Virus record (IMG/VR): IMGVR_UViG_3300027917_000032 | Span: 1 to 64,000 of that record | Length of the DNA: 64,000 bases | Reading direction: 5' to 3' (one strand) | Origin: a virus | Shown: positions 6,540 through 57,037 of the stretch, in pieces | Position numbering within the stretch: position 1 is the stretch's first letter | Layout of the letters: each line of letters starts with the position of its first letter | Made by a program: the position numbers and the translations under genes | Notes under the pieces: generated by a model | Told to the model about the DNA's origin: nothing | The model's input: only the letters and a program-made list of their open reading frames with translations | Databases searched by the model: none

Positions 6540-6552
6540 CGCATACCCTTTC

Positions 6553-6747: not shown

Positions 6748-6749
6748 AG

Positions 6750-6821
6750 CAGTGGAGGGAGGAATCGAACCTACCGCCTTTTGATCCAAAGTCAAACGTG
6801 CTACCATTACACCACCCCACT
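6750..6821 (-). tRNA. tRNA-Gln (TTG)
   Basis: Cloverleaf: AGTGGGG/CTCCACT, TTTGA-CTTTGGA-TCAAA, TTCGATT T-loop; no encoded CCA. Confidence 0.9.
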
Positions 6822-7047: not shown

Positions 7048-7108
7048 ACTCTCCTCCATCCGTATCCTCCCAGTACCAAGTACCATCTTCTATACCCCAC
7101 TGTGAGTG
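7009..7108. repeat. 100-bp direct repeat, copy 1
   Basis: 97/100 identical to 7351..7450; begins at the tRNA-Glu 3' end. Confidence 0.95.
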
Positions 7109-7178
7109 GCCCCGCCCGGTAATGCTCCGGGTTCTCCGGGTTGAAAGCCCGGCGATCTAACTTCTAATCTACGGGGCC
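7107..7178 (-). tRNA. tRNA-Glu (TTC) with non-canonical T-loop AGCATTA
   Basis: GGCCCCG/CGGGGCC acceptor, CCGGG-CTTTCAA-CCCGG anticodon arm. Confidence 0.85.
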
Positions 7179-7180
7179 GG

Positions 7181-7267
7181 TCGCCGGGGCAGGACTTGAA
7201 CCTGCATCGGGAGCCGCGAACTCCCACCCCTTACATGAGGCGCGTCTGCCACTTCCGCCACCCGGCT
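7181..7267 (-). tRNA. type II (Leu/Tyr-like) tRNA-like gene with shortened anticodon arm, probably non-decoding
   Basis: D arm GCG-GAAGTGGCAGA-CGC, long variable arm, GCAGG-TTCAAGT-CCTGC; anticodon arm CCTC-ATGTAA-GGGG. Confidence 0.65.
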
Positions 7268-7346
7268 AGGTGCCCTTCCGCCCGCCCGGTCGTCCTGTAG
7301 ACAGTTGAGCGGGCCGGAAGGCTATGTTGTTGCACCTGGCAGGATG
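7268..7346 (-). ncRNA. candidate structured RNA
   Basis: Nested helices AGGTGC/GCACCT, CCTTCC/GGAAGG, GCCCGC/GCGGGC. Confidence 0.4.
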
Positions 7347-7350
7347 GGCT

Positions 7351-7450
7351 TTCCAGAGCGGCGATTCGCTTCTGTAGAACCTTGTCCATACTATCCTCCA
7401 CTCGTATCCTCCCAGTACCAAGTACCATCTTCTATACCCCACTGTGAGTG
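7351..7450. repeat. 100-bp direct repeat, copy 2
   Basis: See copy 1; holds only the first codons of the MDKVLQ gene. Confidence 0.95.
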
Positions 7451-7520
7451 ACCCAGCCGGGTTACGCTCCCGGTTCTCCAGGTTGAAAGCCTGGTGACAT
7501 AACTAGTAGTCCACTGGGCC
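7449..7520 (-). tRNA. tRNA-Glu (TTC) with non-canonical T-loop AGCGTAA
   Basis: GGCCCAG/CTGGGTC acceptor, CCAGG-CTTTCAA-CCTGG anticodon arm. Confidence 0.85.
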
Positions 7521-7523
7521 GCG

Positions 7524-7618
7524 AAGGCGTGCGGGAACTACCTCAAGCACCATGCGCTTCCCGCAGCGGTTAGGTTTACTGCTCCCGGTAGCCAGGGTCT
7601 TACTCCCTGGGACGCCTT
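7524..7618 (-). ncRNA. candidate structured RNA
   Basis: AAGGCGT/ACGCCTT closing stem; CCAGGG/CCCTGG and GCGGGAA/TTCCCGC arms. Confidence 0.45.
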
Positions 7619-7827
7619 TAACACCATCCACGAACTTTTGTATGCTTAAGCGCTTGCTCAACCTCAGCTTCGCGCGTCGTCGTTCCCGTAAATCCCACCG
7701 CCATCGCATACGCGATGAGGCGCGCGTCCCATTTGTCCAGGGCATAGGCGGCGATGGATGTTTCTACGTTGGTGCCAGGAGTGGTCACAGTGACTAACCA
7801 GCACTTAACTCGTTTTTGTATTCGCAT
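7618..7827 (-). CDS. hypothetical protein
   Basis: Packed ORF. Confidence 0.55.
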   Translation of the reverse strand: MRIQKRVKCWLVTVTTPGTNVETSIAAYALDKWDARLIAYAMAVGFTGTTTREAEVEQALKHTKVRGWC

Positions 7828-8161
7828 CGTTTTGATTCAATATGTTGTTCAACTCCACTAAAACGTCGAACGGTAGCCGCTTTAGCTCGTGCATCTGAAA
7901 CCGCCGCGAAAGCCGACTACACAGACGCGCTTTCCGCGCTTCCTGATACAAGTCTTGCGTCTCGCCTTCGCGTGGCAACCTTACTGAGATAAAGTGCCAA
8001 CGGTCACGCCGTCCCGACTGGCGGCCATCCCGCTTGCGGAACCGCTCACCCATGTCGGTAATTATGAGTGTGGGCGTAAGACGCTCGACATAGGTGACAC
8101 GACGACCCATGCTATCCAAACGGATCAACTCGTCGCCCTCTTTTATATTCTCAAGACTCAT
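7805..8161 (-). CDS. hypothetical protein
   Basis: GGGAG RBS; VERLTPT...GERFRKRDG pattern common in phage proteins. Confidence 0.7.
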   Translation of the reverse strand: MSLENIKEGDELIRLDSMGRRVTYVERLTPTLIITDMGERFRKRDGRQSGRRDRWHFISVRLPREGETQDLYQEARKARLCSRLSRRFQMHELKRLPFDVLVELNNILNQNDANTKTS

Positions 8162-8299
8162 AGTGTTCTCCCATAAGCCACGCCAATAGCGAAGGCTTTT
8201 GCTTTAGGGTAGGTTAGCTACCTACCTGCGTGCTTTCCAATTACACTACCGCCCAAAAAGGGGCAGCGTGGCCGGTTGGCAGAGTGTGAAATATCTGTT

Positions 8300-8384
8300 G
8301 AGTCGGGGAGGGAATTGAACCCTCAGAGCCAGCGGCGGCTAGGTTACAGCCTAGCTTGGACTCAAACCATTGTCCAGCCCGATC
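8300..8384 (-). tRNA. tRNA-Tyr (GTA)-like, atypical (6-nt anticodon loop, imperfect acceptor stem)
   Basis: GCTAGG-CTGTAA-CCTAGC, variable arm, GAGGG-TTCAATT-CCCTC. Confidence 0.65.
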
Positions 8385-8395
8385 CTCTGGATACC

Positions 8396-8806
8396 TCACA
8401 CACTTCCGGCCTTTGCTGCCAGTGATCTAGGGATGTTTCTTTTCAGTTGCTCACCGATATATCCTGGATTCATTGGGTCAAACTCCAGTACCCACTTGAA
8501 GCCAATATCTTCCGTCGCCTGCGCCAGCAGGATGGCATCAATCACAAACTGCACCCAGTTGCCCCAGTAGTATTGTCGCCAGCCGGGCGGGCCGCCGAAA
8601 AAGCGAATCTTCTCCGAGCGGGCAAGCCTATGCCCCGACTTGTCATCCTTTAATACTTCGCGTGGGCAGGTATAATACCAGTCACCCGCATGAGGCCAAG
8701 CTACCGCTACAGAGTGGCAGTCAACGCCGTAAATCTTGAGGAGCCAGCACGCCTCATGCACGGTGATCCACTTCAACTTTCGTTTGAGTACGTCGATAGC
8801 GGTCAT
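8396..8806 (-). CDS. F-x-GGP family protein (array copy 5)
   Basis: IRFFGGPPGWRQYYWGNWVQFVID. Confidence 0.75.
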   Translation of the reverse strand: MTAIDVLKRKLKWITVHEACWLLKIYGVDCHSVAVAWPHAGDWYYTCPREVLKDDKSGHRLARSEKIRFFGGPPGWRQYYWGNWVQFVIDAILLAQATEDIGFKWVLEFDPMNPGYIGEQLKRNIPRSLAAKAGSV

Positions 8807-9144
8807 ATCCCCAACAACTCCTCAAATTCCAGCTTCCGAGTGTAGTGCCAAAACAAGGCTTCGTCGCACAGCATCGTAAGCATGGTCCCCTGTTGCGGCG
8901 AACACTGGCGGGGTGGGCCACCTGTAAAACCCACAACGCCAAAACTGCCGCACGGCATGTCCAGCAGAAAATCGTCCAACTCTGCCAACGCGCTGCTCAC
9001 AGTCCAACATTCACCGCTCCAAGTAAACGATTTATACGGCGACTGAAACTTCTGTGCTATTGTGATTAGGGCGGCCCGTACCGAAAGCACGCAATACTTA
9101 TATTTCATGTCGGCAGGTTTCGGTTTTGCTTGTTTCACTAACAT
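8803..9144 (-). CDS. F-x-GGP family protein (array copy 4)
   Basis: VGFTGGPPRQCSPQQGTMLTMLCD. Confidence 0.7.
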   Translation of the reverse strand: MLVKQAKPKPADMKYKYCVLSVRAALITIAQKFQSPYKSFTWSGECWTVSSALAELDDFLLDMPCGSFGVVGFTGGPPRQCSPQQGTMLTMLCDEALFWHYTRKLEFEELLGI

Positions 9145-9512
9145 GCGCCACGGTCCCACAGAATGTGCTCAATTGCCCGTATTGGACTCATGCCGCTCGT
9201 CAAGGTCCGACGCAGCATACAGTCAACTAAATAGGTCAGTAAGGTGCCGGTATACAAGCCGTTGCCGTAAGGGCCGCCAATAAACTCGATGGGCGATACG
9301 TCAATCGCGTTCATCATACGGCGACTGGTAATACCAAGCAGCCCGGCTGGCGTCCAAGGATACAGGCAGCCAGAAGCACCGACCCACCAAAACAGCGAGT
9401 CGCCGTAACCCAAAATCTTTAGCATGTGGCAAGCTGCGCCAGCCGTGTGCCCCTCCACGGCTTCTTGGAAACCAACCATGCACCCGTAGGTAAATATACG
9501 GTTATCACGCAC
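9138..9512 (-). CDS. F-x-GGP family protein (array copy 3)
   Basis: IEFIGGPYGNGLYTGTLLTYLVD; GTG start with GGAGG. Confidence 0.75.
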   Translation of the reverse strand: MRDNRIFTYGCMVGFQEAVEGHTAGAACHMLKILGYGDSLFWWVGASGCLYPWTPAGLLGITSRRMMNAIDVSPIEFIGGPYGNGLYTGTLLTYLVDCMLRRTLTSGMSPIRAIEHILWDRGAC

Positions 9513-9828
9513 TGGCGGCCTCCAAGAACTTCTCAACCCGATCCCAGCATCCGTGTGTATGCTGATGGAAAAGCTCATCGACTAGCAACGCCAGCAGCGT
9601 GCCCCGATATTCTTTTCGCCCGCTGTTAAATGGACCGCCGCGAAATCTTAACGGAATCAACCGCGCGGGTATGTCGCCGTTCACTCGCTTCGCCAAATCA
9701 ATGATGTAGGTTGGAGCCCCGCAAAACTCAACTTGAACCGACGCAGCTTTGAACGTGTAGAGCAGATGGTTGAGAGCACGAGCCGCTGACCACTCGCGTA
9801 GCGCGTCGTAGGCTTTTTCAACATTCAT
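9505..9828 (-). CDS. F-x-GGP family protein (array copy 2)
   Basis: LRFRGGPFNSGRKEYRGTLLALLVD. Confidence 0.75.
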   Translation of the reverse strand: MNVEKAYDALREWSAARALNHLLYTFKAASVQVEFCGAPTYIIDLAKRVNGDIPARLIPLRFRGGPFNSGRKEYRGTLLALLVDELFHQHTHGCWDRVEKFLEAASA

Positions 9829-10207
9829 CAATCCCGATCCATTCTGCAACATGGTTAATGCCGTTTACGTCAATCTCGCAAAGAAGCCGGTCTAACAGCA
9901 GCGTGTAAAGTGTTCCCGTGTACCAGTGAAGTTTGTTTGGCGGCCCGCCCCAGAACCAAAACGTCATCGTTTCTTCGGCCATCCGGCCCTGAAGCTCAGG
10001 GTAGCGAAAGTCGTTTGCCAGGTTATCGGTAAACTGCTTGACACCGTTGACATAAATGATTTCGTTGCTGTAGCCAAAGGCTTCCATGATAGCCAGCGCG
10101 CCCTCAATGCTGATCCCCTTAATCGTGCGCAAGATAGCTTTCAGGGGGCGGGTTGGCTTTTTCCGCTGATTGATCTGATTGATAGTTGTCAGTGCTTGCA
10201 TGTCCAT
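9818..10207 (-). CDS. F-x-GGP family protein (array copy 1)
   Basis: FWFWGGPPNKLHWYTGTLYTLLLD. Confidence 0.75.
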   Translation of the reverse strand: MDMQALTTINQINQRKKPTRPLKAILRTIKGISIEGALAIMEAFGYSNEIIYVNGVKQFTDNLANDFRYPELQGRMAEETMTFWFWGGPPNKLHWYTGTLYTLLLDRLLCEIDVNGINHVAEWIGIDEC

Positions 10208-10212
10208 ACTAA

Positions 10213-10241
10213 ACCCTACCATGTCATTTGCCGCTTGTCAA
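10213..10241 (-). promoter_or_regulatory. sigma70-type promoter for the F-x-GGP array, likely leaderless
   Basis: TTGACA-N17-TAGGGT with TG extension; ATG 5 nt after the -10. Confidence 0.7.
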
Positions 10242-10616
10242 GTCGTCGGCCAGCAAATTTTTCAAGTCAACGATCATGGTGACGCGGAGCGCGTTCTGCT
10301 CAGGGGTGATGGGCCGAAAGTCAGCATCGGGATCGCCTTTGGGCCGGAACTTCTCGACTCGCAACCACTTGTCGGCCCACCGTTCAATCACGGGATTCCC
10401 TACCATCGGCACAGCCGGTACAGTGTCTCTAATCTCACACTCCACAACAAACCTCGCCTTGTCTCGATTAAGCCACTGTTTATATGGCTCCTGATCGGTC
10501 TTGGCGCGCAGACGATCCTCCAGAACACGGCAAAAACGCCGCACAATCTTGCGGCGTATGGGCTCTGTAACTAAGTCCGACAGGTTGCGAAAGAACCCCG
10601 CTAAGTCTCTCAACAT
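10224..10616 (-). CDS. hypothetical protein
   Basis: Packed ORF. Confidence 0.6.
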   Translation of the reverse strand: MLRDLAGFFRNLSDLVTEPIRRKIVRRFCRVLEDRLRAKTDQEPYKQWLNRDKARFVVECEIRDTVPAVPMVGNPVIERWADKWLRVEKFRPKGDPDADFRPITPEQNALRVTMIVDLKNLLADDLTSGK

Positions 10617-11230
10617 AGTAGTCCGTACTCCCTTGTGTGAAGCAGCGGAGGCTGCGATTCGACCCCCGTCGCGTCCCAGTTAAATTGCCCGTAGTGATTT
10701 CCGTAGTAAGTTGGCGCACCCAACAGCGAAAGTTCCTCATGTAAATAAGTCGTGTTATTGCCAACAGACGTCCAGTTGCCATAGCTGAAATAGCGGCTGA
10801 AAAATTCTTGTGCGTCGGAACCACGCACATCCAGTGGCAACGCTCTCCACCTTAGATACCGCTTGAGTACGGTTTCCATTTCACCACTTGCGAGCAGTCG
10901 GCCCTTGCACCATGCGTGTAGTTTGTTCCAGCCGACCCAATGCGGTTTAATACCGCGCCCATTCCCTGCCGCTTCTTTCGCGGCGGCCATCCTCGCTGAA
11001 TTAACGGGGATACCACGGCGCGTCGCTTCTGCATAGCAGCAGACACGCAACTGAGAGTATGCCTGATAATGACCTGCCCAAGCCATCGGAATGGTCGGGC
11101 GCTGTTGACCGATTTCCACGGCATGATTAAAATGCCGCAGCGTCACAAGCGTCTCAATCAGCATAGCGTCACTGTAGCAGGCGGCGCTGCGTGGAAAACT
11201 CGCATAAGGCAGTAAGATACAATCAAGCAT
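10610..11230 (-). CDS. divergent pyrimidine-dimer glycosylase/endonuclease V-like (MSMEG_6728-type) protein
   Basis: LPYASF.RSA, W.GH, C..E..RRG, P.W.G...LH......LL and HY..F.W elements. Confidence 0.6.
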   Translation of the reverse strand: MLDCILLPYASFPRSAACYSDAMLIETLVTLRHFNHAVEIGQQRPTIPMAWAGHYQAYSQLRVCCYAEATRRGIPVNSARMAAAKEAAGNGRGIKPHWVGWNKLHAWCKGRLLASGEMETVLKRYLRWRALPLDVRGSDAQEFFSRYFSYGNWTSVGNNTTYLHEELSLLGAPTYYGNHYGQFNWDATGVESQPPLLHTREYGLLC

Positions 11231-11525
11231 ACGTCGGTCGCCTCAGTAACACGTTACAGCCAACGGGGAACTCGTAGTCGCGCGGGTGCCATTTCCAATC
11301 ATCATAGGAATCCCCGCCGACCCATTCGCGTTCAATTAGTATGGCATAATAACCGTCATAAGTGACAAGTGTCTCCAAGAGCATAAGACCATCCTCGTCC
11401 AGATACTCCGTCTGCAATACCCGCTTACGCCCTGAAAACTCTGCAACCCGCAATACGCGCACAAACGTCGGGCACAGAGTAACCACCCTGATCGCGTCTT
11501 TCGCGTACTTCTCAAACAGACTCAC
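11223..11525 (-). CDS. hypothetical protein
   Basis: Packed ORF with GGGAGGG RBS. Confidence 0.6.
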   Translation of the reverse strand: MSLFEKYAKDAIRVVTLCPTFVRVLRVAEFSGRKRVLQTEYLDEDGLMLLETLVTYDGYYAILIEREWVGGDSYDDWKWHPRDYEFPVGCNVLLRRPTYA

Positions 11526-11790
11526 ACGTTCCCTCCCTCATTCGGGCTACCCACTCGGCGTGCGTTTCGATGACGCAGTTGTACTGTTGCAGCATCGACA
11601 GAATCCAATGCTCCTCGCCCGTGTGACGCTCACCGCAAGCACAAATGCCCACGAGCAAATCACACGACGTATCAAAACGACGATGCCCCGTATGGGCCAT
11701 ACGATTCTGCCACTTTTTCGGGTAGGCGACGAATTGCCCCTTGTGCCCAAAACGTCGCAAAAGGGTTATGGGTTGGCCCATTCTCATCAC
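11512..11790 (-). CDS. hypothetical Cys/His-containing protein
   Basis: CDLLVGICACGERH; lies downstream of a promoter. Confidence 0.65.
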   Translation of the reverse strand: MMRMGQPITLLRRFGHKGQFVAYPKKWQNRMAHTGHRRFDTSCDLLVGICACGERHTGEEHWILSMLQQYNCVIETHAEWVARMREGTCESV

Positions 11791-11824
11791 TCCAGTTAAA
11801 GGTTCTCAGTGGCCGCCTACCTAA

Positions 11825-11852
11825 ACCATATCACAAAATCGGGCCGTGTCAA
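11825..11852 (-). promoter_or_regulatory. sigma70-type promoter
   Basis: TTGACA-N16-TATGGT; same GTGATATG context as 30624..30651. Confidence 0.7.
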
Positions 11853-12454
11853 GCCTCATTCTCGAATTTTCTGCACATGCTCCAATCAAAGAAAAACCAC
11901 CGATTGAAGTGCTTGATGAGTGAATCCTTGTCGATATGCCGCAAATAGGCTTCAATCTCCTCCCAGGTGGAGAAGATCATTTCATGCGGCACCGTCGCCA
12001 AGAGCCAGTTGGGCGTAGCCTCTTTCCCTTGCTCGACATGAATGAGACACGGCTTCTTTTGCCGATTCGCCAGAAACAACTCTTCGTATGTTCCGCAGGC
12101 GTGTACGTCAATGTCAAGATTGATAATCAGAAAGTCGGCAATATCGACCATCCGAAGATCGACTGCGCGGATTACCTTGAGGGGCGGAGCGCACTCGTCA
12201 TACATTCCGAGCTTCTTCATCGCATTGATTTCATTCCGTAACGCCGCATCCTCGATTCCGACTTCAATCGGCTTGTGCGTCGGGTCCATCCAGATGATGC
12301 CCAAGTCGGCCAAATCCTTTTGCAGTTTGATTCTCCAAGCCTCGCCGCCGTCCTGCACACGATCCATCGCCCCGCAGAGGTAGCCCCGCGTATAGCGGAG
12401 TCGGTTGGTCGTGCTGCTCCTGATTAGTTCGTCGCTGCGTGCTGGCATAGTCAT
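11849..12454 (-). CDS. nucleoside 2-deoxyribosyltransferase (NDT)-family protein
   Basis: YLCGAM..WR, DLRMVDIADFLI, CGTYEEL. Confidence 0.8.
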   Translation of the reverse strand: MTMPARSDELIRSSTTNRLRYTRGYLCGAMDRVQDGGEAWRIKLQKDLADLGIIWMDPTHKPIEVGIEDAALRNEINAMKKLGMYDECAPPLKVIRAVDLRMVDIADFLIINLDIDVHACGTYEELFLANRQKKPCLIHVEQGKEATPNWLLATVPHEMIFSTWEEIEAYLRHIDKDSLIKHFNRWFFFDWSMCRKFENEA

Positions 12455-12909
12455 TCTCCCTTCAAGTTGAGGATTGCTTCCGCCACCGTCAGAGCGGTTT
12501 CTACACTCTCGACACGAAACCCGGTAGCTTCAGAAATCATACCGTGGTTGTGGATGTTATCATCTTCGCTAATGACGATGATGGGGATGCGTTTCAAGTC
12601 GGCCCACGCAATCTCCATGACCGTGCCGATGCTCACCTTAGTCGCACCGAGAAAGTTCACGACCAACAGATCACAGCGGGTACAGTCAAAGCGGTCGCGG
12701 GTCATAATCCCACGGCTACAACTCAGCACCGTGTCGTAGTCGTTGCTGATGCACTCCTCAGCGGCTAGGTAATCCTTACCCCGCATCGGGTCCAAGCACT
12801 CGACGTTTTTACCGTAAAGCGCCTTCGCAAAGGCTTTCCGCCAATCGGTGCAGCCGCCATACGAACAGCCCGTGATAGGGCCAGCCAAGTAGATTGTGTA
12901 ATGGTTCAT
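12451..12909 (-). CDS. nucleoside 2-deoxyribosyltransferase (NDT)-family protein
   Basis: IYLAGPI..WR, RDRFDCTRCDLL, SIGTVMEIAWA. Confidence 0.85.
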   Translation of the reverse strand: MNHYTIYLAGPITGCSYGGCTDWRKAFAKALYGKNVECLDPMRGKDYLAAEECISNDYDTVLSCSRGIMTRDRFDCTRCDLLVVNFLGATKVSIGTVMEIAWADLKRIPIIVISEDDNIHNHGMISEATGFRVESVETALTVAEAILNLKGE

Positions 12910-13595
12910 TTTTCACTCCAATCAGGCATTAGTGTTTCAATGGACGAGGAGCCCAGCCGCGTGCAGCCCAGAGACAGGAAGCGCTCGGCGTCGGCGTAGC
13001 GCTTAATTCCACCGCTGGCCTTAACCTGCGTATATGACCCCTCCACTACGCTCAGCATTGTCATCACGTTGGGCACGGTCGCAATCGAACGTGTGCCAGT
13101 GCCAAACCCGGTCGAAGTCTTGACCCATGCGATATGATCGTGCATCGCCAGCGCGGACGCCGTGTAGATTTCATTTTCCTTGAGGTAACACGTCTCAAGG
13201 ATCATCTTAAACTTCACCCCTGTCTCGCGCTGCATCCGAGCCATCGCCTTAATCTCAGTTACGACGGGTTCCCAGTCACCATCCTTGATTGCGCCGATAT
13301 TTGTCACCCAATCAACTTCAGTAGCCCCATCCTTGATAACCGCAGCGGCGGCCAGCGCCTTAACCACGGGCGAGTCATTTCCGTGCGGGAAGCTAACCAC
13401 CGTCCCAACCTCAATCGGGAAGCCGTCGAGAATCTTCGCAGCCAGAGGAACATAGTGCGGCTTCACACAGACGGAAGCGCAGCCGAAGCGAATGGCCCGC
13501 TGGCAGCAGACGGATGTATCAACCGACGTTGCATCCGGCTTGAGACAAGCCAGGTCTACAGCGGCGGCAACTTGTTCGCGGGTGTAATTAAACAT
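12906..13595 (-). CDS. deoC: deoxyribose-phosphate aldolase
   Basis: SVCV.P, GTVVSFPHG, GATEVD, KMILET, VKTSTGF, VKASGGI, RLGSS. Confidence 0.95.
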   Translation of the reverse strand: MFNYTREQVAAAVDLACLKPDATSVDTSVCCQRAIRFGCASVCVKPHYVPLAAKILDGFPIEVGTVVSFPHGNDSPVVKALAAAAVIKDGATEVDWVTNIGAIKDGDWEPVVTEIKAMARMQRETGVKFKMILETCYLKENEIYTASALAMHDHIAWVKTSTGFGTGTRSIATVPNVMTMLSVVEGSYTQVKASGGIKRYADAERFLSLGCTRLGSSSIETLMPDWSEK

Positions 13596-34093: not shown

Positions 34094-34419
34094 TCTTGCT
34101 CCAAACTGATGAGGTTATTGTCAACGAGTACATTAGCGACCGCCGTAGCCAGCGTTGTGATAAATGGCTCCTCCATCTTCTCCGACCTGAAAGCCGCGCC
34201 AAGCATGGGCGTTCGGTTAAAAATGGCGTGCAGTACCTCATGGATCGCCGTGTCCAGAACGCCCAATGGTGTTTGCTTTATCGAGACGCGGATAAAGTCG
34301 TCTCCGCAAAGTCCGTTCATTTGGCTATCCGGGTCGCTCAAATCAACGTCTCTTGGATCAGAGACGAATGTCAAGGCGTAGGGATAACCTTGAACCATTA
34401 ACTTAGTAGGATACTTCAT
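34090..34419 (-). CDS. small HExxH metallopeptidase-like protein
   Basis: G.C....I.V......DTAIHEVLHAI...EE. Confidence 0.7.
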   Translation of the reverse strand: MKYPTKLMVQGYPYALTFVSDPRDVDLSDPDSQMNGLCGDDFIRVSIKQTPLGVLDTAIHEVLHAIFNRTPMLGAAFRSEKMEEPFITTLATAVANVLVDNNLISLEQE

Positions 34420-35477
34420 TTTACCTCCGCATAGTAGTCAGGGCTAACGGCTTTGAGAATGAGGCGACCACCTAGCACGGGGCTGAACGTCTCCTCCAGC
34501 GGCGTAATCACAATCCCCTCGCGGCCCTTGAAGTCGCAACAAATATTCTCGGGACTGGCGAGCGTGGTTGGGCCACTAATGTACTGGTCAATAAGCTCAG
34601 GTCGGAAGGGGCCTTCATAGAGCACCGGCACAGTCGCAATCTCAAACAGGTCACAGTATGTCTTTATATCCTCCCAGTCAAGGTAATCACCGTCAACTGA
34701 AATATCAAAGACCCGGTGCCCCGTAAGAGGCAGTCCATAATCCATCGACTGAACACGGCTGCCGTAGATTTCACCAAACACAATGACATTCAGCACACCA
34801 CGACTAATGAACTCCATCATCTGAATCATGTTGTCAGTCATCGGGAGCCAATACGGAGAGAAGTCGTGATTTGCGTTCCGCATTTTCACACGGACGTTGT
34901 GTGAACCCGCCATACCTACGCCATCAATCACACCCACCCGCGAGTTTGAACCGTGAATCTTCTCGGTAATCCGAACCGGCGTGCCCGTTGGCAGCGCAGA
35001 GGCGTAGCGATAGTAGTGCTGGATATTGGTATACTTATGGAACGCCGGATGGTCGGGCTCCGCGTCCGAGCTTCGCATCTTCGGCGGCGGCTGATACTTC
35101 TCTGCGCTGAACGCTTCTGATACGTCGTCACCAACCTTCACGTCGCCCAACGTCACACCCAGCCGCTCGTCAAGAGGCAGGCCGAAACCAAATGACGGCA
35201 CGCCGCGTAGGCGGATCGCCCCGACTCGGCACTGAGACTTCTCCGAATCGCCGGGGTAGACCGCGTGCTTCAAGTAATTCTTCACGCCCAACGCATCGGC
35301 CACGGACTCTGGGATCATAATGTCAGGCGGAAAGTACACGCAAGACTGGCCGACATGAAAGCAGTCAAGAGGAGCTACGAGTTGAGTATCAAGCACCTTG
35401 ACAATCTCCAGACGGTCGGCGTTGGGGTGCTGCGTCACAGACTTGACAGCAACGATTTCGACAGGGGTTTCACTCAT
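34416..35477 (-). CDS. RNA ligase, DRB0094 family
   Basis: HPNADRLE OB domain, TEKIHGSN, FGEIYG, FDI, REGIV, ILK.VS.DY. Confidence 0.9.
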   Translation of the reverse strand: MSETPVEIVAVKSVTQHPNADRLEIVKVLDTQLVAPLDCFHVGQSCVYFPPDIMIPESVADALGVKNYLKHAVYPGDSEKSQCRVGAIRLRGVPSFGFGLPLDERLGVTLGDVKVGDDVSEAFSAEKYQPPPKMRSSDAEPDHPAFHKYTNIQHYYRYASALPTGTPVRITEKIHGSNSRVGVIDGVGMAGSHNVRVKMRNANHDFSPYWLPMTDNMIQMMEFISRGVLNVIVFGEIYGSRVQSMDYGLPLTGHRVFDISVDGDYLDWEDIKTYCDLFEIATVPVLYEGPFRPELIDQYISGPTTLASPENICCDFKGREGIVITPLEETFSPVLGGRLILKAVSPDYYAEVK

Positions 35478-35712
35478 TTGCAAACTCCGATGTTTGGTCA
35501 AGTAGTCTGAGGGTTATGCCGTTCCGGTCATGCTTAGCGAGTAGACCCGCAAGCCTCGCGCACTCTTGGAGTGTCTCGGTCAGTTCTTTGACGCGATCCC
35601 GCGCATCGTCGCGCTCTATTTCCAGCGTGTCACGCTCACTCTGAGCATAGAACAACTCGTCATTGAGCAGGCTAACTTCGTTCTGGTATGAGTCGCATTG
35701 TTCACAAATCAC
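35470..35712 (-). CDS. small coiled-coil protein
   Basis: Heptad pattern. Confidence 0.55.
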   Translation of the reverse strand: MICEQCDSYQNEVSLLNDELFYAQSERDTLEIERDDARDRVKELTETLQECARLAGLLAKHDRNGITLRLLDQTSEFANE

Positions 35713-37562
35713 ACTAGCTCCCTCGCAAAGATAGGTTTCGTTCGGTCAATGGTTTCGTGGTTCTCGATGATGTATTCCATCGCCGCCTCAAAGTAATCCG
35801 GCTCGTCCGTGTCGAAGATCGCTTTGCGAATATCGACCGCGAGTAGGCGGGCGGTAACGTCCATCCTGTACGCTGCGTCATTTGTCATGCGGGTGGTAAT
35901 GTCGAGAAATTCCGACCCGGTGTGAGCAATCAACTCTTCCAGCCCTACCCTACGCAGCAAGGCCGATGCCGCCAAGTTGTAAAAGCGGTCGCCCTCCAAG
36001 GTGACAACGGGTTTTCCCAGATATAGGGCTTCTACTACCGTGTTGTACCCGCCGAACGGCCACGAGTTCAATGCAAAATCGGCATATTCCGCTTCTTCCA
36101 TGTATTCGAGATATTCCTTATCTGCGTGCAGCGTTGCAAAATCGCCCACCTGATGTGCGATTTCGTTAGCAAATGGTATGAAAGCGTTGTACCGATGAAC
36201 GCCCCGGCTGGCGAAGATCGCAAAGTGAATGTCAGGACAACGACGGTGAAGCTCCTGCAACGTCCGTATCATCGTGTAGTTGTACTTGTCCGGTCCCCAG
36301 ACGCAGTTTACCACGACCTTATCCGACTTCTGCTTAGGATACTTCCGCTCAAACGTGGGCCATACTGGCGTGCAGCCGAGCCCTGGCAGAACAATGGGCG
36401 TCTCGGAGTAGTTCTTGTCCAGGTCGTCAATCTTCTCTGTCTCCTCGCCCACAACAAAGTAGTCTATCTCACTGCCGAAGGTACTGACCGGGTGGCCGTA
36501 GCTCGTCACCTGAATCGGAGCGAGGCGCAGGTTGCTGAGCCACACCGATTCGTCTGTCATCCCAATGTCGGGGTAGTAGATCAACTGAAAATCGTTTTCC
36601 GTGACCAGACTCAATGGCAACTCGTGTACGCCCTTCGCGTCCAGTGTAAACTGCATCTTATGAATCGTATCAAAGTACACCTTCGCGTGTTCGGGGACAG
36701 CGTAGGGGCCGGTGTGCAGCAGTGTCAGCTTGTAGTTTGGTCGAAACCGATCTAGGTACGGGAAGCAACTCTTATAGACTGCCGTGTGCGGCGACCACTT
36801 CGACGTGACAATAGCGATGCTGTGCCGATCCGGTTTGTTGACAATGTTAATCTCTTGCTTCTGCAAAAACTCACGGCACCCGGCGTTGACTAATTCTTTC
36901 ACACGCCGGTCAGTCCTATCCTCCCCCGCAAAGTACGTTGAGTAGAAATAAGGAAGCGTCACCCGCTGATCGAATGGGCGGTAGCGATGATCCATTTCTT
37001 GATAGTGTAGCCGCATGTTAGCTTGATAATGCGGCAGGACGCAGCCAATGGTGGCAAGCGGATAGGTAAAATGCCAGAGACTAGCCAGGCGAGGATCATG
37101 GTCGAAGAGAACCTTCGCATCAATCTTTGCCATGTTCTTCACGCCGTACAAGAAGAGAATCTTAAAGTAGTTGTCACGCTGGCGTATGACCTGATTGAGA
37201 ATATCGTCTGTGTCCTGATAACTGGACATGGCAACCATATTTGCAAACAAGTGCGCCCGACTAATCATCATCGGAATGTACTCGTTTGGAAACTGAAAGT
37301 CAGGGTCACTAAGTACCGCCATAATGGCCGATACAATCTGGTCGATGCGATGCAGCCCTTCCTGGTTAATTGTCCGAAAGTTGCATTGTTGAAAATAGTA
37401 CATCACTTCAAGGATGCTTTTGCAAATCTCCCCATACTGCCCTTTGTAGAGAAGTGTGTAGAGGCGCTTTCGGTCGGTCACTGGTAGATCGGTCTTATTC
37501 GGCTGTATCTCAAACGGCGGGCGTTGCTTCCGTTGCCGCTTCTTCTTACGACGTTTCGGCAT
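35709..37562 (-). CDS. HMW1C-like glycosyltransferase (GT41, OGT/SPINDLY-related)
   Basis: LSDPDF, SS..DTD.IL, H.AVYK, Y.DIGM, LRLAPIQV..YGHP.ST....IDY, PFGG.NT..EAL..GKP.V. Confidence 0.88.
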   Translation of the reverse strand: MPKRRKKKRQRKQRPPFEIQPNKTDLPVTDRKRLYTLLYKGQYGEICKSILEVMYYFQQCNFRTINQEGLHRIDQIVSAIMAVLSDPDFQFPNEYIPMMISRAHLFANMVAMSSYQDTDDILNQVIRQRDNYFKILFLYGVKNMAKIDAKVLFDHDPRLASLWHFTYPLATIGCVLPHYQANMRLHYQEMDHRYRPFDQRVTLPYFYSTYFAGEDRTDRRVKELVNAGCREFLQKQEINIVNKPDRHSIAIVTSKWSPHTAVYKSCFPYLDRFRPNYKLTLLHTGPYAVPEHAKVYFDTIHKMQFTLDAKGVHELPLSLVTENDFQLIYYPDIGMTDESVWLSNLRLAPIQVTSYGHPVSTFGSEIDYFVVGEETEKIDDLDKNYSETPIVLPGLGCTPVWPTFERKYPKQKSDKVVVNCVWGPDKYNYTMIRTLQELHRRCPDIHFAIFASRGVHRYNAFIPFANEIAHQVGDFATLHADKEYLEYMEEAEYADFALNSWPFGGYNTVVEALYLGKPVVTLEGDRFYNLAASALLRRVGLEELIAHTGSEFLDITTRMTNDAAYRMDVTARLLAVDIRKAIFDTDEPDYFEAAMEYIIENHETIDRTKPIFARELV

Positions 37563-38727
37563 GGTAATCATCCTCTGTGTATTCTTTGATGCCAAAGGGT
37601 TCAACAACATATACCGTTTTCACGCAGGGGTAGCACTGTTGAATCTCCATCCAAATGTCGGCCGCGCGCCAGCGAGTCGTGATAAGTACCGTCTCGGCTG
37701 GGTTCTCGTACAGAGACTCGGCGTGTTCAATCAATTGCCCCGTGCCGGGAACGTACCGGCCCGCCTTGCGTCGGTCGGAGTCAATAACCCGCCCCTTGGT
37801 AATGTGGAACGCATTAAGGAACGCCGCTCCCTTGCCCGTGCCGCCCCAGAACACCATGTCAGTGTCGATCAACTCCATTAGGAAGTTGACCAAACCACTC
37901 GTCCCGTGGTAATCCCAACCCTGGGGGTAGCCAGGGTAGGCTCGCGGATTTGGCACGCCGGTCCAGATGACTACTTCATCATTGTAGGTGCGGTAGCACT
38001 CACGAGTCAACCACCCGCAAGACTCAAACATCGTCCGCATACTGCGGAAGGTAAAGTTGCTCACATGCTCGTACAGGAAATCGCCCACGCGGGTTGTCGC
38101 CAGAGCCCTGTCAATGCACGGCACTTCCGCCACGAACACTGGACGAATGTTATTCTGCACGCAGGCCCAGGCCAATTCCGTGATAAACTCCCGTGGTTGC
38201 TCCATGTGCTCCAGTACATGACGACACACCAGCATGTCAGGCTTGTGCTTGCCCAAGTCCCGCCCAGGGATGAAGTAGTCGGCATACGTCTTTAAGCGTA
38301 GCAACTTGCAGTCCCGATGCTCTGGTCCCGGCTCATAGGCGATAGCTTCAACATCGCACTTCAGCATACAGGTAAGTTTGAGCGTGTGGAGAAACGAACC
38401 GTCGCCCGCTCCAATGTCCACCACCGTCAGATCGTTGTGGATATAGTTGTCCCGCAGCTTCAAAGCAAGCTCGTCAAGGTGACGCTGCCAGCCCCGCCCA
38501 TTGTTGAACATGAGGTTGGAATCTTCTTCATACGGGATTTGAGCCACGTCGAAGTCTTTATTGAATACATGCCCGCACTTGACGCAAACGTGGAAGTTCA
38601 TCGGATACCGCAACGCCCGCTCTGCATCCTCGCGTGTGCGGGGTAGGTTCAGGGCGGCGAGCGGTTGCGGGCCAGGTTGGTAGAGCGGGTGCGTCAAGTG
38701 ACACCCGCAGGCAAGACAGTTACTCAT
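37546..38727 (-). CDS. NDP-sugar C-methyltransferase-like SAM-dependent methyltransferase (TylC3/TcaB9 architecture)
   Basis: Zn CxxC...CxxC, DIGAGDG, HVLEH, EVP, YEH..NF, WG..GKG..FLN, K.GRY.PGT. Confidence 0.88.
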   Translation of the reverse strand: MSNCLACGCHLTHPLYQPGPQPLAALNLPRTREDAERALRYPMNFHVCVKCGHVFNKDFDVAQIPYEEDSNLMFNNGRGWQRHLDELALKLRDNYIHNDLTVVDIGAGDGSFLHTLKLTCMLKCDVEAIAYEPGPEHRDCKLLRLKTYADYFIPGRDLGKHKPDMLVCRHVLEHMEQPREFITELAWACVQNNIRPVFVAEVPCIDRALATTRVGDFLYEHVSNFTFRSMRTMFESCGWLTRECYRTYNDEVVIWTGVPNPRAYPGYPQGWDYHGTSGLVNFLMELIDTDMVFWGGTGKGAAFLNAFHITKGRVIDSDRRKAGRYVPGTGQLIEHAESLYENPAETVLITTRWRAADIWMEIQQCYPCVKTVYVVEPFGIKEYTEDDYHAETS

Positions 38728-38835: not shown

Positions 38836-39435
38836 TTACGAAGCATTAGCATGTTCGTGTCGTTCCTCCAAAGGTCGGTGCATTAAGCGGGCATAAACCT
38901 CATCAATGCTGATAGGTCGCCATCGACCAATCAACCGATGAATGTTGTCGATACCAACGTCCATCGCTCGCCGGTTGGGCCAGAGGCTATCCAGCTTCTC
39001 TTCAAATTTACCGTGACTATGACCGTACAGATGGATGCTGCCCTTTTGCATACCACGCCACGACAGCATGGGCTCGTGGCTCATGCGGATACGGATGCGG
39101 TCGGTATTACCATGTGCAGTAGCTACGGTGAAACGCCGGTAAAGCAAGTCGTTCAGGGAGGAGCCGTGCCGACGCAGACTACTCGCATCGTGGTTGCCAC
39201 GGATAAAGTGTAGTTCGCGCACTTTCAGCCGCGCCCGGTAGTGACCTGCCCGGCTTGCTTGCCAGCAGAAGTCTCCCAAGTGGTACAAAGTGTCGTTAGG
39301 TTGTACCCAATAGTTCACGGCACCGATCAACATGGCGTCCATGTCGGCCAAGTCGCGGGTTTCTTGGAAACGCGCGTCTTGGTGAACACGGACGCCAGCG
39401 TGGCCGAAGTGTAGGTCAGCGGTAAACCAGATCAT
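38836..39435 (-). CDS. calcineurin-like metallophosphoesterase
   Basis: ADLHFGH, LGDF, GNHD, H.P, GHSH, DVGID. Confidence 0.9.
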   Translation of the reverse strand: MIWFTADLHFGHAGVRVHQDARFQETRDLADMDAMLIGAVNYWVQPNDTLYHLGDFCWQASRAGHYRARLKVRELHFIRGNHDASSLRRHGSSLNDLLYRRFTVATAHGNTDRIRIRMSHEPMLSWRGMQKGSIHLYGHSHGKFEEKLDSLWPNRRAMDVGIDNIHRLIGRWRPISIDEVYARLMHRPLEERHEHANAS

Positions 39436-39450
39436 GTATTCCTCCACCCC

Positions 39451-39479
39451 AGTCTACCATACAAAAGGGCGGTTGTCAA
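39451..39479 (-). promoter_or_regulatory. sigma70-type promoter
   Basis: TTGACA-N17-TAGACT with TG extension. Confidence 0.8.
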
Positions 39480-39510
39480 ATAAATAAGGGAGGGGTGCGA
39501 CACCCCTCCC
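39478..39510 (-). terminator. rho-independent terminator
   Basis: GGGAGGGGTG-TCG-CACCCCTCCC followed by TTATTTATTT. Confidence 0.8.
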
Positions 39511-49354: not shown

Positions 49355-49531
49355 ATGTACCGGATTATGATTTGCCAAAGCGTATGTGCTAGTGGCTCGG
49401 TAATCATCGCTCGAACGCTGGCAACATTATACGAAAATGAAGTTCCTGATGATATTGAAACAATCGTTGAGGAACTTGGCGGCGACTACTACGACATTCA
49501 AAACGAGGAGGATGACGATGGCGAAAATTGA
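49355..49531 (+). CDS. small acidic protein (58 aa, not in ORF track)
   Basis: GAGGAG RBS; fills the gap between primase and the next gene. Confidence 0.55.
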   Translation: MYRIMICQSVCASGSVIIARTLATLYENEVPDDIETIVEELGGDYYDIQNEEDDDGEN

Positions 49532-50282
49532 CTACAGCGTGGGGGATATTAACAGCACAAAGAAGGGTTCAGGTGCCCGAGCCAACAGTGGTAAGATTTC
49601 CTTTGCCGTGACCCCACTCCCGTTGCTGGCGGGCTGCGCCCGCGTTTGGATGAGTGGCCTGCTCAAGTACGCACCGTGGAATTGGGCCAAGGGAATGAAG
49701 TGGAGTGTACCCTTTGACTGCCTCTGTCGTCACCTGTTCAAGTGGTGGTATCTGGGAGAAGATATTGACCCCGAATCCGGTGAGCATCACCTTGACCTTG
49801 TGTTCTGCAACCTCTTCATGCTCAAGCACTACACTAAGACCTTTACAGAGGGCGACGACCGCCCGCCTGAGTACGCCGATTTCGGCCCGTGGTTGGATGA
49901 CTTCAACACGCCTTTTGATGAGGCGGGGTTCTTGGAGCGGAACCCGGATATTGCCCGCATGATTGAAGAACGCAAGGCTCAGGAAGAAGTGGAAGCAGCG
50001 GAAGCAGCGGAAGCAGCGGAAGCAGCGGAAGCAGCGGAAGCAGCGGAAGGTGTCACCTGGCACGAAGGAGCAAAAGACTCCGCCGTGCGCAAGCACTACG
50101 GGATCATTTACCGTGCGGAGTCAAGAAAGAAGATAGCCGCTGGGGAGAAAAAGTTCACGCAAGACGAGATTACGGCCATGTGGGCCGCAGCCCGTGAGCG
50201 CGCCCTTGCCGAGGCGACGCAAAAGGATAGTTGCTCTTGTCCCGACAATGTTGATTGCCGTGGTTGTCGAGGAGGTTTCTAA
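49518..50282 (+). CDS. dATP/dGTP diphosphohydrolase (DUF5664) domain protein
   Basis: GARANSGK..F...P, ARV...G..KY...NW.KG, DPESG.HHL; GAGGAGG RBS. Confidence 0.85.
   Translation: MAKIDYSVGDINSTKKGSGARANSGKISFAVTPLPLLAGCARVWMSGLLKYAPWNWAKGMKWSVPFDCLCRHLFKWWYLGEDIDPESGEHHLDLVFCNLFMLKHYTKTFTEGDDRPPEYADFGPWLDDFNTPFDEAGFLERNPDIARMIEERKAQEEVEAAEAAEAAEAAEAAEAAEGVTWHEGAKDSAVRKHYGIIYRAESRKKIAAGEKKFTQDEITAMWAAARERALAEATQKDSCSCPDNVDCRGCRGGF
49991..50049 (+). repeat. 9-bp tandem repeat GGAAGCAGC x6 (EAA linker)
   Basis: Six perfect copies plus GGAAG. Confidence 0.95.
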
Positions 50283-55185: not shown

Positions 55186-55568
55186 TATTCTCTCTCCTCA
55201 AACTCCAAGGTTAGGTCCATGACTTCTCCGCCAGGGAACCTGACTGCTCGACCACTCCCCGTGCTTTCAAATGGATTGTTCACCAAGTAACCAATCCAGA
55301 TGTTACTATCATGGTCAATGACCTGAATTGGCAGGCGGTAGTAGGCGTTGATAAAAACCCGTAATTCCAGAGCTTTATTTCGCGCTACAGTAAAGTCCCA
55401 TTGAAGCCGTTTTCGCCCGCCCCGCGATTTAACATAGGTGTAGGATGTTCCATCCATCGCCCGGCTAATCTGCATAGTCGAAGTCAGACCAACCGAGTCG
55501 CTAAACTTCGGGCTGGGCAACACCAATGTTACTTGGAGACTGGGGTAAGGTGCGCGTAGTGTAAACAT
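55185..55568 (-). CDS. minor tail protein (distal-tail-like)
   Basis: Position; similar to the C-terminal domain of 55568..57037. Confidence 0.6.
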   Translation of the reverse strand: MFTLRAPYPSLQVTLVLPSPKFSDSVGLTSTMQISRAMDGTSYTYVKSRGGRKRLQWDFTVARNKALELRVFINAYYRLPIQVIDHDSNIWIGYLVNNPFESTGSGRAVRFPGGEVMDLTLEFEERE

Positions 55569-57037
55569 TAGGGACTCACCACTGTTTCTTCAACCACGTC
55601 GTCAAGTACCATCACATCCGTCAAGGTGCGATGCCATTCAACAATCAGTGTTTGACTGTCGGACATATTCATGTGATTGCCGGGCGGTAGTTCCTCTACT
55701 ATTGTGCCCTCAAATTCAAACGTCAGCGTCCAGCGACAACCACGCCCATCTTGGGCTGCCCGATCATTTGGCGTCGTTATAATGCCCACCCACTGCGTTC
55801 CTTCCCAGTCGATGATGCCCACTTCTTTTCCAATGTGATCGACCATGAATTGCTGCATGTCATCCACTTCAGTCTTAGTAAGACCAGAGAAGCTGAGAAT
55901 CAAAGTTTGAATCTTGGGCCATGTTGGGTCGGCAAAAATTGTCAAACGACCGCCGCGTGTTTCTCTGTTGATTCGAGTGAAGGATTGCCGATCCCTGTTG
56001 TCAAGGTTCGGAGCCCGAAGCTCGACAATATCGGTAGACTCACCCAGAGCGGGATAGAGTAGCAGGAATCGTTCTCCATCCGGTAGTCTAGGAATGTACT
56101 CCAAGCTATCGTCAGGCGGCGTGGGATTGGACGTGGAGGTACTCTCCCCGATAAAAGGCGTGTAGGCTTTCTTGTCGCACGGGTCGGGCAAGTAGTAAGT
56201 GAGTGTGTGACCCAGGCCCATCGAATCTGTCACAGTGCGATCCCACACCCCGTTTGTCTGAACAACTTGCGTCAAATCCAGTTCCGACGCAGGAATATCT
56301 TTAGACTTGCCTGCGTTCAGCGTTTGCACCAACGAGAGATTTGAAGAAGGCGTCTCGCTCCAGTATGCCTCGTCGGCCATATTCATTGTCGTTGTGACGT
56401 TCTCTTGATGCGGGTAGCCTGCCCCATGCACAAGGTCAATCGCATCCGAGAGTCGTTCAAACTTATCCTCATACGGCATAAAGCCATTGAGAAACATCTT
56501 ACTCTGGCATGAGATTCGGATAGTTCCACGAACGCTGACGGCTTGCGTCATCGACATTGTGGAATCAACAAGATTAGAAAGACCGGTCACTTCGGCCAAG
56601 TCGGTAAGATTTAAGTCGTGGCTCAGCCCAATGAAATCGCCAACACTAACGAACTCAGAAACAATGTCTGAGACCGCCATGTTGGTTGTGAGACTTTCTT
56701 CTTTTACACGCCCGGCTTGGTGTACTAGCGTCAGCGTGCTTGACGCCGACGCCGGAATAGATATTGGCAACGTTTGTGTCATTGACAAGTTTGATGTAAG
56801 CGACCGCGTGAGATTAAGTCCAACGGCTACGTCGTCGGACAGTGCCATCACGCTGTTTACATCTTCCTCAAATGATGCCGACGCCTCCGCCAACACTTCA
56901 ACGTGCTGCCGAGTTACACGCAACTTACCGTCACTAGCGGGTGCGAGCACTTCAACGTGCTGCCGCGTAACCCGTAGCTCACCATCGCTTGCAGGCGCAA
57001 GCACTTCAACGTGTTGTCGCGTGACTCGTAAAGCCAT
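55568..57037 (-). CDS. minor tail protein with N-terminal 17-aa repeats
   Basis: LRVTRQHVEVLAPASDG x3; Ser/Thr-rich degenerate repeats. Confidence 0.65.
   Translation of the reverse strand: MALRVTRQHVEVLAPASDGELRVTRQHVEVLAPASDGKLRVTRQHVEVLAEASASFEEDVNSVMALSDDVAVGLNLTRSLTSNLSMTQTLPISIPASASSTLTLVHQAGRVKEESLTTNMAVSDIVSEFVSVGDFIGLSHDLNLTDLAEVTGLSNLVDSTMSMTQAVSVRGTIRISCQSKMFLNGFMPYEDKFERLSDAIDLVHGAGYPHQENVTTTMNMADEAYWSETPSSNLSLVQTLNAGKSKDIPASELDLTQVVQTNGVWDRTVTDSMGLGHTLTYYLPDPCDKKAYTPFIGESTSTSNPTPPDDSLEYIPRLPDGERFLLLYPALGESTDIVELRAPNLDNRDRQSFTRINRETRGGRLTIFADPTWPKIQTLILSFSGLTKTEVDDMQQFMVDHIGKEVGIIDWEGTQWVGIITTPNDRAAQDGRGCRWTLTFEFEGTIVEELPPGNHMNMSDSQTLIVEWHRTLTDVMVLDDVVEETVVSP

Follow-up and report, generated by a model that had tools for sequence, protein, structure and literature searches.

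What would a lytic phage gain from a glycosylation cassette lodged among its replication genes? The question is raised by two overlapping genes in the first 64 kb (hereafter the window) of the 87,928-base IMG/VR virus record IMGVR_UViG_3300027917_000032, and by the copies of them that related phages carry. One gene encodes a glycosyltransferase (GT) of the GT41 class and the other a methyltransferase (MT) resembling enzymes that make branched-chain nucleoside diphosphate (NDP) sugars. The substrates of sugar C-methyltransferases are NDP-4-keto sugars; those of GT41 enzymes are proteins, which they glycosylate in the cytoplasm. A sequence-only reading of this DNA had proposed an HMW1C-type module, in which the phage makes a methylated sugar donor and attaches it to Asn in N-x-S/T sequons of virion or host proteins. 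We compared both enzymes with characterized relatives by profile, structure prediction, and residue conservation, and surveyed their gene neighborhoods in viruses and bacteria. Both enzymes are of known kinds; it is the carrier that is unusual. We hypothesize, with a probability of about 0.6, that the pair is a minimal protein-glycosylation cassette through which a C-methylated host NDP-sugar would be transferred to a protein, by a route other than classic N-x-S/T recognition. This reading draws on what is known of both enzyme families and on the flagellar context of their bacterial relatives.

Conservation of the gene pair

The family alignment, used to scan IMG/VR, recovered 37 viral loci, with GT identities of 31–60%. 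Every one (37/37) carried an MT homologue (30–57% identity) upstream of the GT and on its strand; the two genes were immediate neighbors in 35 loci, and ~2 kb containing a second GT paralogue separated them in the other two. The pair lay between the same replicative helicase (53–79% identity) and recombination exonuclease (58–74%) in all viral loci except L032 and L033, where no helicase match was found; the exonuclease was undetected only in the truncated locus L017. Because a metallophosphoesterase was detected beside the pair in only about half of the viral loci and an RNA ligase was undetected in 15/37, the conserved unit is the pair rather than a four-gene block. The 37 loci represent one large phage clade, and shared ancestry explains part of this conservation. 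The association proposed from the window alone extends to bacteria, where the pair recurs in the seven nearest flagellum-linked loci that have an MT and in one further locus, L054. Searches of both proteins against INPHARED phage genomes (tblastn) gave no matches, and PHROGs has no family for either; no relative from a cultured phage is available. The strict adjacency, the overlapping reading frames, and a clade-specific change in the sugar pocket of the GT (see below) favor a coupling of the two enzymes.

Tandem GT41 paralogues occurred in several loci. A second, divergent copy lay just downstream of the first GT in L011–L016 and L013/L027, and a paralogue stood between MT and GT in L032/L033; the bacterial loci L040 and L054 each had two GT41 copies and L101 had three. 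These arrangements hint at two-step or two-target glycosylation. A 983-aa ORF (open reading frame) in L041 that appeared to fuse MT and GT was rejected as one of the spurious long ORFs that GC-rich DNA produces, since the MT match lies in another frame.

Fold of the glycosyltransferase

The motifs by which the GT had been recognized (HTAVYK, LRLAPIQVTSYGHP, GPDKYN, PFGGYNTVVE, LSDPDF, SYQDTDDIL, and KILFLY) all occur in its translation. Pfam assigned the protein to GT41 (PF13844, 1e-11), with the HMW1C_N domain sub-threshold (21.1 vs 27 bits). Searched as a single sequence against the Protein Data Bank (PDB), it matched chains of the N-glycosyltransferases (NGTs) AaNGT and ApNGT at 2.6e-24 to 6e-22, led by AaNGT 8P0O/8P0Q (2.6e-24) and followed by ApNGT 3Q3E and 8J30 (~1e-22), whereas O-GlcNAc transferase (OGT) and SPINDLY reached only 1e-7 to 1e-9. 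With a 30-sequence family profile, the NGTs in the PDB matched at 4e-57 to 5e-55, and the alignment covered profile positions 67–585, that is, both the all-alpha and the catalytic domains (position 67 pairs with ApNGT chain residue 54). The AlphaFold model (predicted local distance difference test (pLDDT) 91.9, predicted template modeling score (pTM) 0.89) aligned with AaNGT and ApNGT over its full length in Foldseek (620–650 columns, template modeling (TM) score 0.73–0.77), compared with TM scores of 0.50–0.58 for OGT, XcOGT, and SPINDLY. The NGTs thus prevailed in sequence and in fold, and the suggestion that this GT41 enzyme has the all-alpha N-terminal domain of HMW1C in place of tetratricopeptide repeats (TPRs) holds. 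A metagenome protein search yielded 436 homologues.

The catalytic centre is also preserved. In the profile alignment, AaNGT Gly369-His370, Lys440, and Asn520 are all retained. Across 132 family copies, the Gly-His (YGHP) and the Lys (GPDKYN) were invariant or nearly so, which confirms the catalytic His and Lys that the HMW1C assignment had presupposed; the catalytic-centre Asn (PFGGYNT) was kept in 120, the stacking Tyr in 129, and the ribose-binding Asp/Glu in 131 of the 132. The sugar contacts differed from those of glucose-specific NGTs. AaNGT Ser277 is replaced by Ala in 49/57 phage and flagellum-linked copies, whereas Ser is kept in 57/75 of the others, and further changes affect Asn518 (Gly), Thr519 (Tyr), and Thr437 (Gly/Thr).

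Acceptor recognition

In AaNGT, the Thr at position +2 of the sequon is read by two residues of the all-alpha domain, Arg177 and Asp215, with His214 assisting, and alanine mutants of both Arg177 and Asp215 are inactive (PMC10507012). In the alignments of the phage GT with AaNGT and with ApNGT, the Arg177 column holds the Ala of PLATIG (posterior ~0.7) and the Asp215 column the Leu/Pro of RVTLPYF (posterior ~0.5), a residue mapping taken from sequence alignment, in which the flanking columns have posteriors of 0.8–0.9. For His214, the alignment with ApNGT gives the Thr of RVTLPYF, and the one with AaNGT has an inserted residue left unaligned; phage copies have Ser, Thr, Ala, or Gln as the His214 equivalent. 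Among 47 phage copies, none had Arg at the Arg177 column and three had Asp at the Asp215 column, and in the phage and flagellum-linked clades both columns were occupied by variable small or hydrophobic residues. The GT also failed to pass the NCBIfam NGT equivalog NF049992 (UDP-glucose:protein N-beta-glucosyltransferase), scoring 103 bits against a cut-off of 1000. With the Arg/Asp pair of the NGTs missing, the enzyme is unlikely to read the classic N-x-S/T motif. As judged from its residues, it is a GT41 transferase whose acceptor domain is of the HMW1C type and which falls outside the strict N-x-S/T-reading NGT family, and the HMW1C-type function assigned to it earlier, modification of Asn in sequons, is not upheld.

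Sequon statistics likewise lent no support to N-x-S/T targeting. The tail protein encoded at 55568..57037, which had been put forward as one candidate substrate, contains 6 sequons where 3.4 are expected, an excess that is not significant (z 1.5), and the flagellins beside bacterial GT homologues fall short of the sequon number expected from their composition (z -1.0 to -1.9). It remains that the full-length HMW1C fold, the best sequence matches to ApNGT and AaNGT, the conserved catalytic centre, and the precedent of virion glycosylation in other phages (mycobacteriophages) are what one would expect of a true HMW1C/NGT enzyme that N-glycosylates the sequon Asn of virion proteins (such as this tail protein) or host proteins with a methylated sugar. 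Given that the sequon-reading residues are unconserved clade-wide, that the equivalog score is low, that the sequon counts are at or below chance, and that the cassette stands outside the structural module, we consider that explanation improbable.

A predicted sugar C-methyltransferase

Individual Pfam matches of the MT were weak (Methyltransf_13, Methyltransf_23, and Methyltransf_14): its Zn domain matched PF08421 at 1.9e-5, below the cut-off, its S-adenosylmethionine (SAM) domain matched PF13489 at 6e-7, and the C-terminal nucleotide-sugar-binding domain PF08484 scored 23.5 bits, exactly at the cut-off. As a single sequence it had no match in the PDB. A profile of 32 homologues, by contrast, matched the sugar C-methyltransferases MtmC (3.6e-24), TcaB9 (7e-20), and KijD1 (1e-17) over positions 2–357, followed by a generic methyltransferase at 1.8e-7. 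The predicted structure (pLDDT 90) had the same three enzymes as its top folds (1e-18 to 3e-21, 418–436 columns) and its only full-length matches, separated by ten orders of magnitude from generic methyltransferases (1e-8). Its TM scores were moderate (0.52–0.54, with a large root-mean-square deviation) because the relative placement of the three domains differs.

Using TcaB9 numbering fixed from wild-type versus mutant entries (4E2Y, 4E2Z, and 4E2W), TcaB9 Glu224/His225 correspond to Glu220/His221 and His181 to His174, all invariant in the 32 homologues. The Zn cysteines C4, C7, C48, and C51 align to those of TcaB9 and are invariant or nearly so. TcaB9 Tyr222 aligns to Leu218, next to a conserved Tyr219, and Tyr76 is not kept (Ile64). 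Profile, fold, catalytic residues, and Zn cysteines therefore agree on the complete Zn-plus-SAM architecture of TylC3/TcaB9-like enzymes that had been read from the sequence. The family is broad, with 788 homologues that include Sulfurimonas proteins and mostly carry a precomputed PF08484 annotation.

Flagellar context of bacterial relatives

The GT family occurs in Planctomycetota, cyanobacteria, Verrucomicrobiota, Kuenenia, and other groups. We surveyed 80 loci from bacterial data, taking one genome per species. Only one of the 80 had the gene context seen in the phages; most lacked an MT, and their neighbors were heterogeneous (among them UvrA, ABC transporters, two-component regulators, DUF3467, and cytochrome c peroxidase), with no conserved neighbor found across these loci outside one flagellar sub-group. 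This sub-group comprises the closest bacterial relatives of the phage GT, nine loci from Thermoguttaceae, Pirellulales, and Planctomycetaceae at 36–41% identity, two of them on chromosomes of 4.2 and 7.5 Mb. Flagellin and/or FliD genes lay beside the GT in 8/9 (L041–L047 and L049): a flagellin of ~910–1070 aa (Flagellin_N plus Flagellin_C) just upstream of the GT or MT-GT pair, and/or a FliD of 920–960 aa within ~4 kb downstream of the GT. An MT was found within 10 kb in 7/9, in five of them directly upstream of or beside the GT. The gene order was flagellin, MT, GT in L041 and L043 and MT, GT, FliD in L042; in all, five bacterial loci (L040–L043 and L054) had the MT-then-GT order. The ~70 more distant loci had no flagellar genes, L054 excepted.

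The main phage clade and the flagellum-linked GTs shared one side of a branch with 93% SH-like support (FastTree, 132 rows), and the same split received 83% SH-aLRT (Shimodaira-Hasegawa-like approximate likelihood ratio test) support in IQ-TREE (47 rows). The phage and flagellum-linked MTs interleaved in their tree. These flagellin-MT-GT-FliD relatives suggest that a phage lineage captured a glycosylation cassette of the flagellin type, and the cassette has probably been exchanged between Planctomycetes and a large clade of their phages. A protein acceptor, as the earlier reading assumed, becomes more likely given this neighborhood. The giant Planctomycete flagellins are Ser/Thr-rich (18–21%; L045 5974-8769, L046 5300-8044, L041 4997-8194, and L043 1830-5039) and are the natural first candidate substrates.

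Two further bacterial contexts were recorded. In L054 (an uncultured bacterium), the gene order across positions 5450-13572 is two sulfotransferases, a homologue of the C-methyltransferase, a radical SAM enzyme, and a tandem pair of GT41 genes. A flagellin-like match lies ~8 kb away, and the locus resembles an enriched form of the cassette. In L057, L069, and L073 (metagenome-assembled genomes of Coraliomargaritaceae/Verrucomicrobiales), a PKMT-type protein-lysine methyltransferase (MethyTransf_Reg plus PKMT_2nd) adjoins the GT homologue; this neighbor belongs to a six-locus neighbor cluster that includes three Verrucomicrobiota loci, a second hint of protein modification.

Donor supply and alternative acceptors

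The claim that the phage makes a methylated donor stands in part. A sugar C-methyltransferase with its catalytic residues is encoded, but no nucleotidyltransferase and no gene of the epimerase/dehydratase/reductase family was found in the phage record, which leaves the host as the necessary source of the 4-keto NDP-sugar. Two larger relatives, L121 (147-kb phage G003, 11.4–13.6 kb) and L120 (175-kb phage G002), each encode a short-chain dehydrogenase/reductase (SDR) that resembles a 4,6-dehydratase or UDP-xylose synthase, below equivalog cut-offs and far from the MT-GT cassette; in G003 its gene adjoins one for a UDP-glucose 6-dehydrogenase-type enzyme (445 bits). Such genes, which the window phage lacks, could supply a 4-keto sugar.

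The position of the cassette between helicase and exonuclease, in a predicted operon shared with a phosphoesterase and an RNA ligase, would also suit a nucleic-acid acceptor, either phage DNA (as for the T4 glucosyltransferases) or RNA/tRNA, as would the unusual nucleotide-metabolism genes of the phage (dATP/dGTP diphosphohydrolase, NDT-like protein, DeoC, and a deaminase). We nevertheless rate this explanation as very unlikely: the bacterial sister group is found in flagellar loci, the pair can do without the phosphoesterase and RNA ligase, the MT profile finds Hen1-type RNA methyltransferases only at E 0.26, and the record contains no thymidylate-synthase-family hydroxymethylase, no TGT/DpdA, and no PurZ. 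We also know of no GT41 enzyme that acts on nucleic acid. DNA hypermodification as such is unsupported, the record having none of these enzymes. An RNA-repair role for a Hen1-like MT was rejected as well, because the Hen1 match compares with 1e-24 for sugar C-methyltransferases and because ligase and phosphoesterase are absent from many pair-bearing loci.

Proposed function

If the pair is a protein-glycosylation cassette, family membership suggests two steps. The MT would add a SAM-derived C-methyl branch to a host-made NDP-4-keto-(deoxy)sugar, with His221/Glu220 acting as the base pair as in TcaB9. The HMW1C-fold GT41 enzyme would then move this sugar, or a reduced form of it, from the nucleotide to a cytoplasmic protein held by the all-alpha N-terminal domain. 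Catalysis would need no metal and would depend on the Gly-His, Lys, and Asn that surround the pyrophosphate and are conserved. The linkage could be to Asn or to Ser/Thr. As acceptors, we would place host flagellin or another surface-filament protein first, virion proteins second, and other host proteins last.

Several points weigh against this reading. The products of C-methyltransferases are 4-keto sugars, which are normally ketoreduced before transfer. The phage record, which is estimated to be about 86% complete, encodes no ketoreductase, and a host ketoreductase or a bifunctional MT (such as MtmC, the best sequence match) must therefore be assumed. A search among longer proteins found multi-GT proteins but no MT-GT fusion. 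In L045 and L046, flagellin-linked GTs have no MT within 10 kb; an MT is therefore not a strict requirement for the GT. The split that unites phage and flagellum-linked GTs is only moderately supported, and the order inside the group has 36% support. Neither the phage record nor the records of four related phages (96–100% complete) contain Flagellin_N, and the cassette sits among replication genes, outside the structural module; for these reasons neither acceptor class is supported by position. For this clade, we infer donor sugar, linkage, and acceptor alike.

The missing ketoreductase and fusion, the two flagellin-linked GTs without a nearby MT, and an MT family wider than the GT clade would all fit an arrangement without a shared pathway, in which the GT uses an ordinary host UDP-hexose and the MT acts on the attached glycan, on another nucleotide-linked metabolite, or on a different substrate. 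We think this unlikely. Adjacency and same-strand order persist in 37/37 viral loci despite heavy divergence, the reading frames overlap, the MT-then-GT order recurs in L040–L043 and L054, the MT retains its C-terminal NDP-binding domain together with the catalytic residues of sugar C-methyltransferases, and the GT clades that accompany the MT typically have Ala in place of Ser277.

Within the protein-glycosylation reading, we tentatively suggest a more specific scenario, one we regard as possible but far from established: a lytic lineage of Planctomycetes phages captured a host flagellin-glycosylation cassette and, expressing it alongside the replication genes, re-decorates a host surface filament (flagellin or a similar protein) with a C-methyl-branched sugar during infection. 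Such re-decoration could mask a receptor from competing phages or prevent newly released particles from adhering to debris. In that case an HMW1C-fold enzyme with a new, non-N-x-S/T acceptor code would be glycosylating a host protein in the cytoplasm, the first such activity encoded by a phage. Lysogenic conversion is a separate idea that we found unsupported: the phage record yielded neither a tyrosine nor a serine recombinase (integrase or resolvase).

Relation to known systems

The phage GT has the same length as HMW1C-like NGTs (Haemophilus influenzae HMW1C, ApNGT 3Q3E, and AaNGT 8P0O/8P0Q; CAZy GT41), the same all-alpha N-terminal domain joined to a GT-B fold, and likewise no TPRs. It keeps their Gly-His, Lys, Asn, uracil-stacking Tyr, and ribose-binding acid. 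It differs in its ~19% identity, in the absence of Arg177, His214, and Asp215, in its changed sugar contacts, and in its setting, being phage-borne, partnered with a C-methyltransferase, and without an adjoining two-partner-secretion adhesin. The MT shares the Zn ribbon, SAM domain, and C-terminal nucleotide-binding domain of TcaB9 (3NDI), KijD1 (5T64), MtmC (4RV9), and TylC3, and has the catalytic Glu-His and second His of TcaB9. Identity is only 16–19%, and TcaB9 Tyr222 and Tyr76 are not in place. Unlike those enzymes, the MT belongs to no antibiotic deoxysugar cluster and is accompanied by no dehydratase, aminotransferase, or ketoreductase; the nucleotide carrier may be dTDP, UDP, or GDP.

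Phage-borne glycosyltransferases that probably alter a surface or particle component are also represented by the mycobacteriophage virion glycosyltransferases and gtrABC-type seroconversion systems. Those systems use other GT families and lie beside structural genes or in lysogeny modules, whereas the present pair lies in a replication region with no integrase detected. A parallel is also found in bacteria. Enterobacterial flagellin glycosylation islands often carry GT41 enzymes, mostly fused to AdoMet methyltransferase domains, and these enzymes contain a SPINDLY-family O-GlcNAc transferase domain, COG3914 (PMC4875605). As in these islands and with FlmG-type flagellin glycosyltransferases, the nearest bacterial homologues of the phage pair combine a GT41-class enzyme and a methyltransferase beside flagellin. 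They are distinguished from the islands by the HMW1C all-alpha N-terminal domain and by a separate sugar C-methyltransferase, and the phage itself has no flagellin gene.

HMW1C-type enzymes are valued as tools for making N-glycoproteins and, to our knowledge, come almost solely from a few Pasteurellaceae-type adhesin systems. Our survey adds a large unstudied branch of this fold in Planctomycetes, cyanobacteria, Verrucomicrobia, and at least 37 phage contigs, in which the sequon-reading residues are lost and one sub-branch of which has a branched-sugar methyltransferase as its partner. For that sub-branch, flagellin is a concrete candidate substrate, given the flagellin-MT-GT-FliD loci. In the literature library searched, no paper was found on a phage HMW1C-like enzyme and none that joins "flagellin glycosylation" with "C-methyltransferase". 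Should the donor prove to be a C-methyl sugar, neither flagellin nor a phage system would have an earlier example of a branched-chain sugar.

Gene layout and neighboring genes

The phage is siphovirus-like. Its genes include those for a 1433-aa tape-measure protein and for a family-A-type DNA polymerase, helicase, primase, DNA ligase, and exonuclease, nearly all of them on the minus strand (Table 1).

Table 1. Features in and around the predicted transcription unit; positions are those of the window.
Feature	Position	Strand	Basis and remarks
Terminator-like hairpin closing the upstream unit	39488..39510	-	10-pair stem, 8 G-C, then T-run; pattern match only
Promoter-like site, TTGACA-17-TAGACT plus TG extension	39451..39479	-	10/12 consensus positions; pattern match only
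Metallophosphoesterase, operon gene 1	38836..39447	-	Pfam Metallophos_2/Metallophos; phrog_547 6e-37; variable neighbor outside the core pair
NDP-sugar C-methyltransferase-like enzyme, 393 aa	37546..38727	-	4-Cys Zn, SAM Rossmann, and C-terminal nucleotide-binding domains
HMW1C-fold GT41 glycosyltransferase, 617 aa	35709..37562	-	All-alpha N-terminal domain plus GT-B
ORF of 80 aa between glycosyltransferase and RNA ligase	35470..35712	-	ORF list only
RNA ligase, DRB0094-like, OB-fold N-terminal domain	34416..35501	-	Pfam RNA_ligase 3.3e-19; variable neighbor outside the core pair

The predicted order of the unit is phosphoesterase, MT, GT, 80-aa ORF, and RNA ligase. The unit had been proposed to start at a promoter at 39451, and a promoter-like site does directly follow the strong terminator-like hairpin there, as a consensus match. 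As promoter-like sites in the region were no commoner than in shuffled sequence, the main argument for this one is its position, just past the terminator and 4 nt ahead of the first gene. The longest ORF of the GT (35709..37610, minus strand) encodes 633 aa, and its most likely start is Met17, the ATG at 37562, which has a GAGGA 8 nt upstream and gives the 617 aa of the public gene call P0001. With this start, the GT gene and the end of the MT gene overlap by 17 nt, stop codon included, in keeping with the overlap noted originally. The 80-aa ORF had no Pfam or PHROGs match above threshold and was not detected in the 37 related viral loci.

Elsewhere in the window (49437-50282 (+), 12451-13595 (-), and 4701-5252 (-)), the phage encodes the nucleotide-metabolism genes mentioned above: a dATP/dGTP diphosphohydrolase (PF18909, 1.2e-20), an NDT-like protein (sub-threshold in Pfam), a DeoC aldolase, and a cytidine/deoxycytidylate-type deaminase. 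They form an unusual salvage or purging set without a recognizable base-replacement enzyme. The RNA ligase further matched the PHA02142 OB-fold domain, phrog_968, and TIGR02306 (2.7e-38, below the cut-off of that family). Together with the metallophosphoesterase it brackets the MT-GT pair in this phage and is missing, like its partner, from many relatives; the two probably form an accessory set for RNA repair whose movement is not tied to that of the pair.

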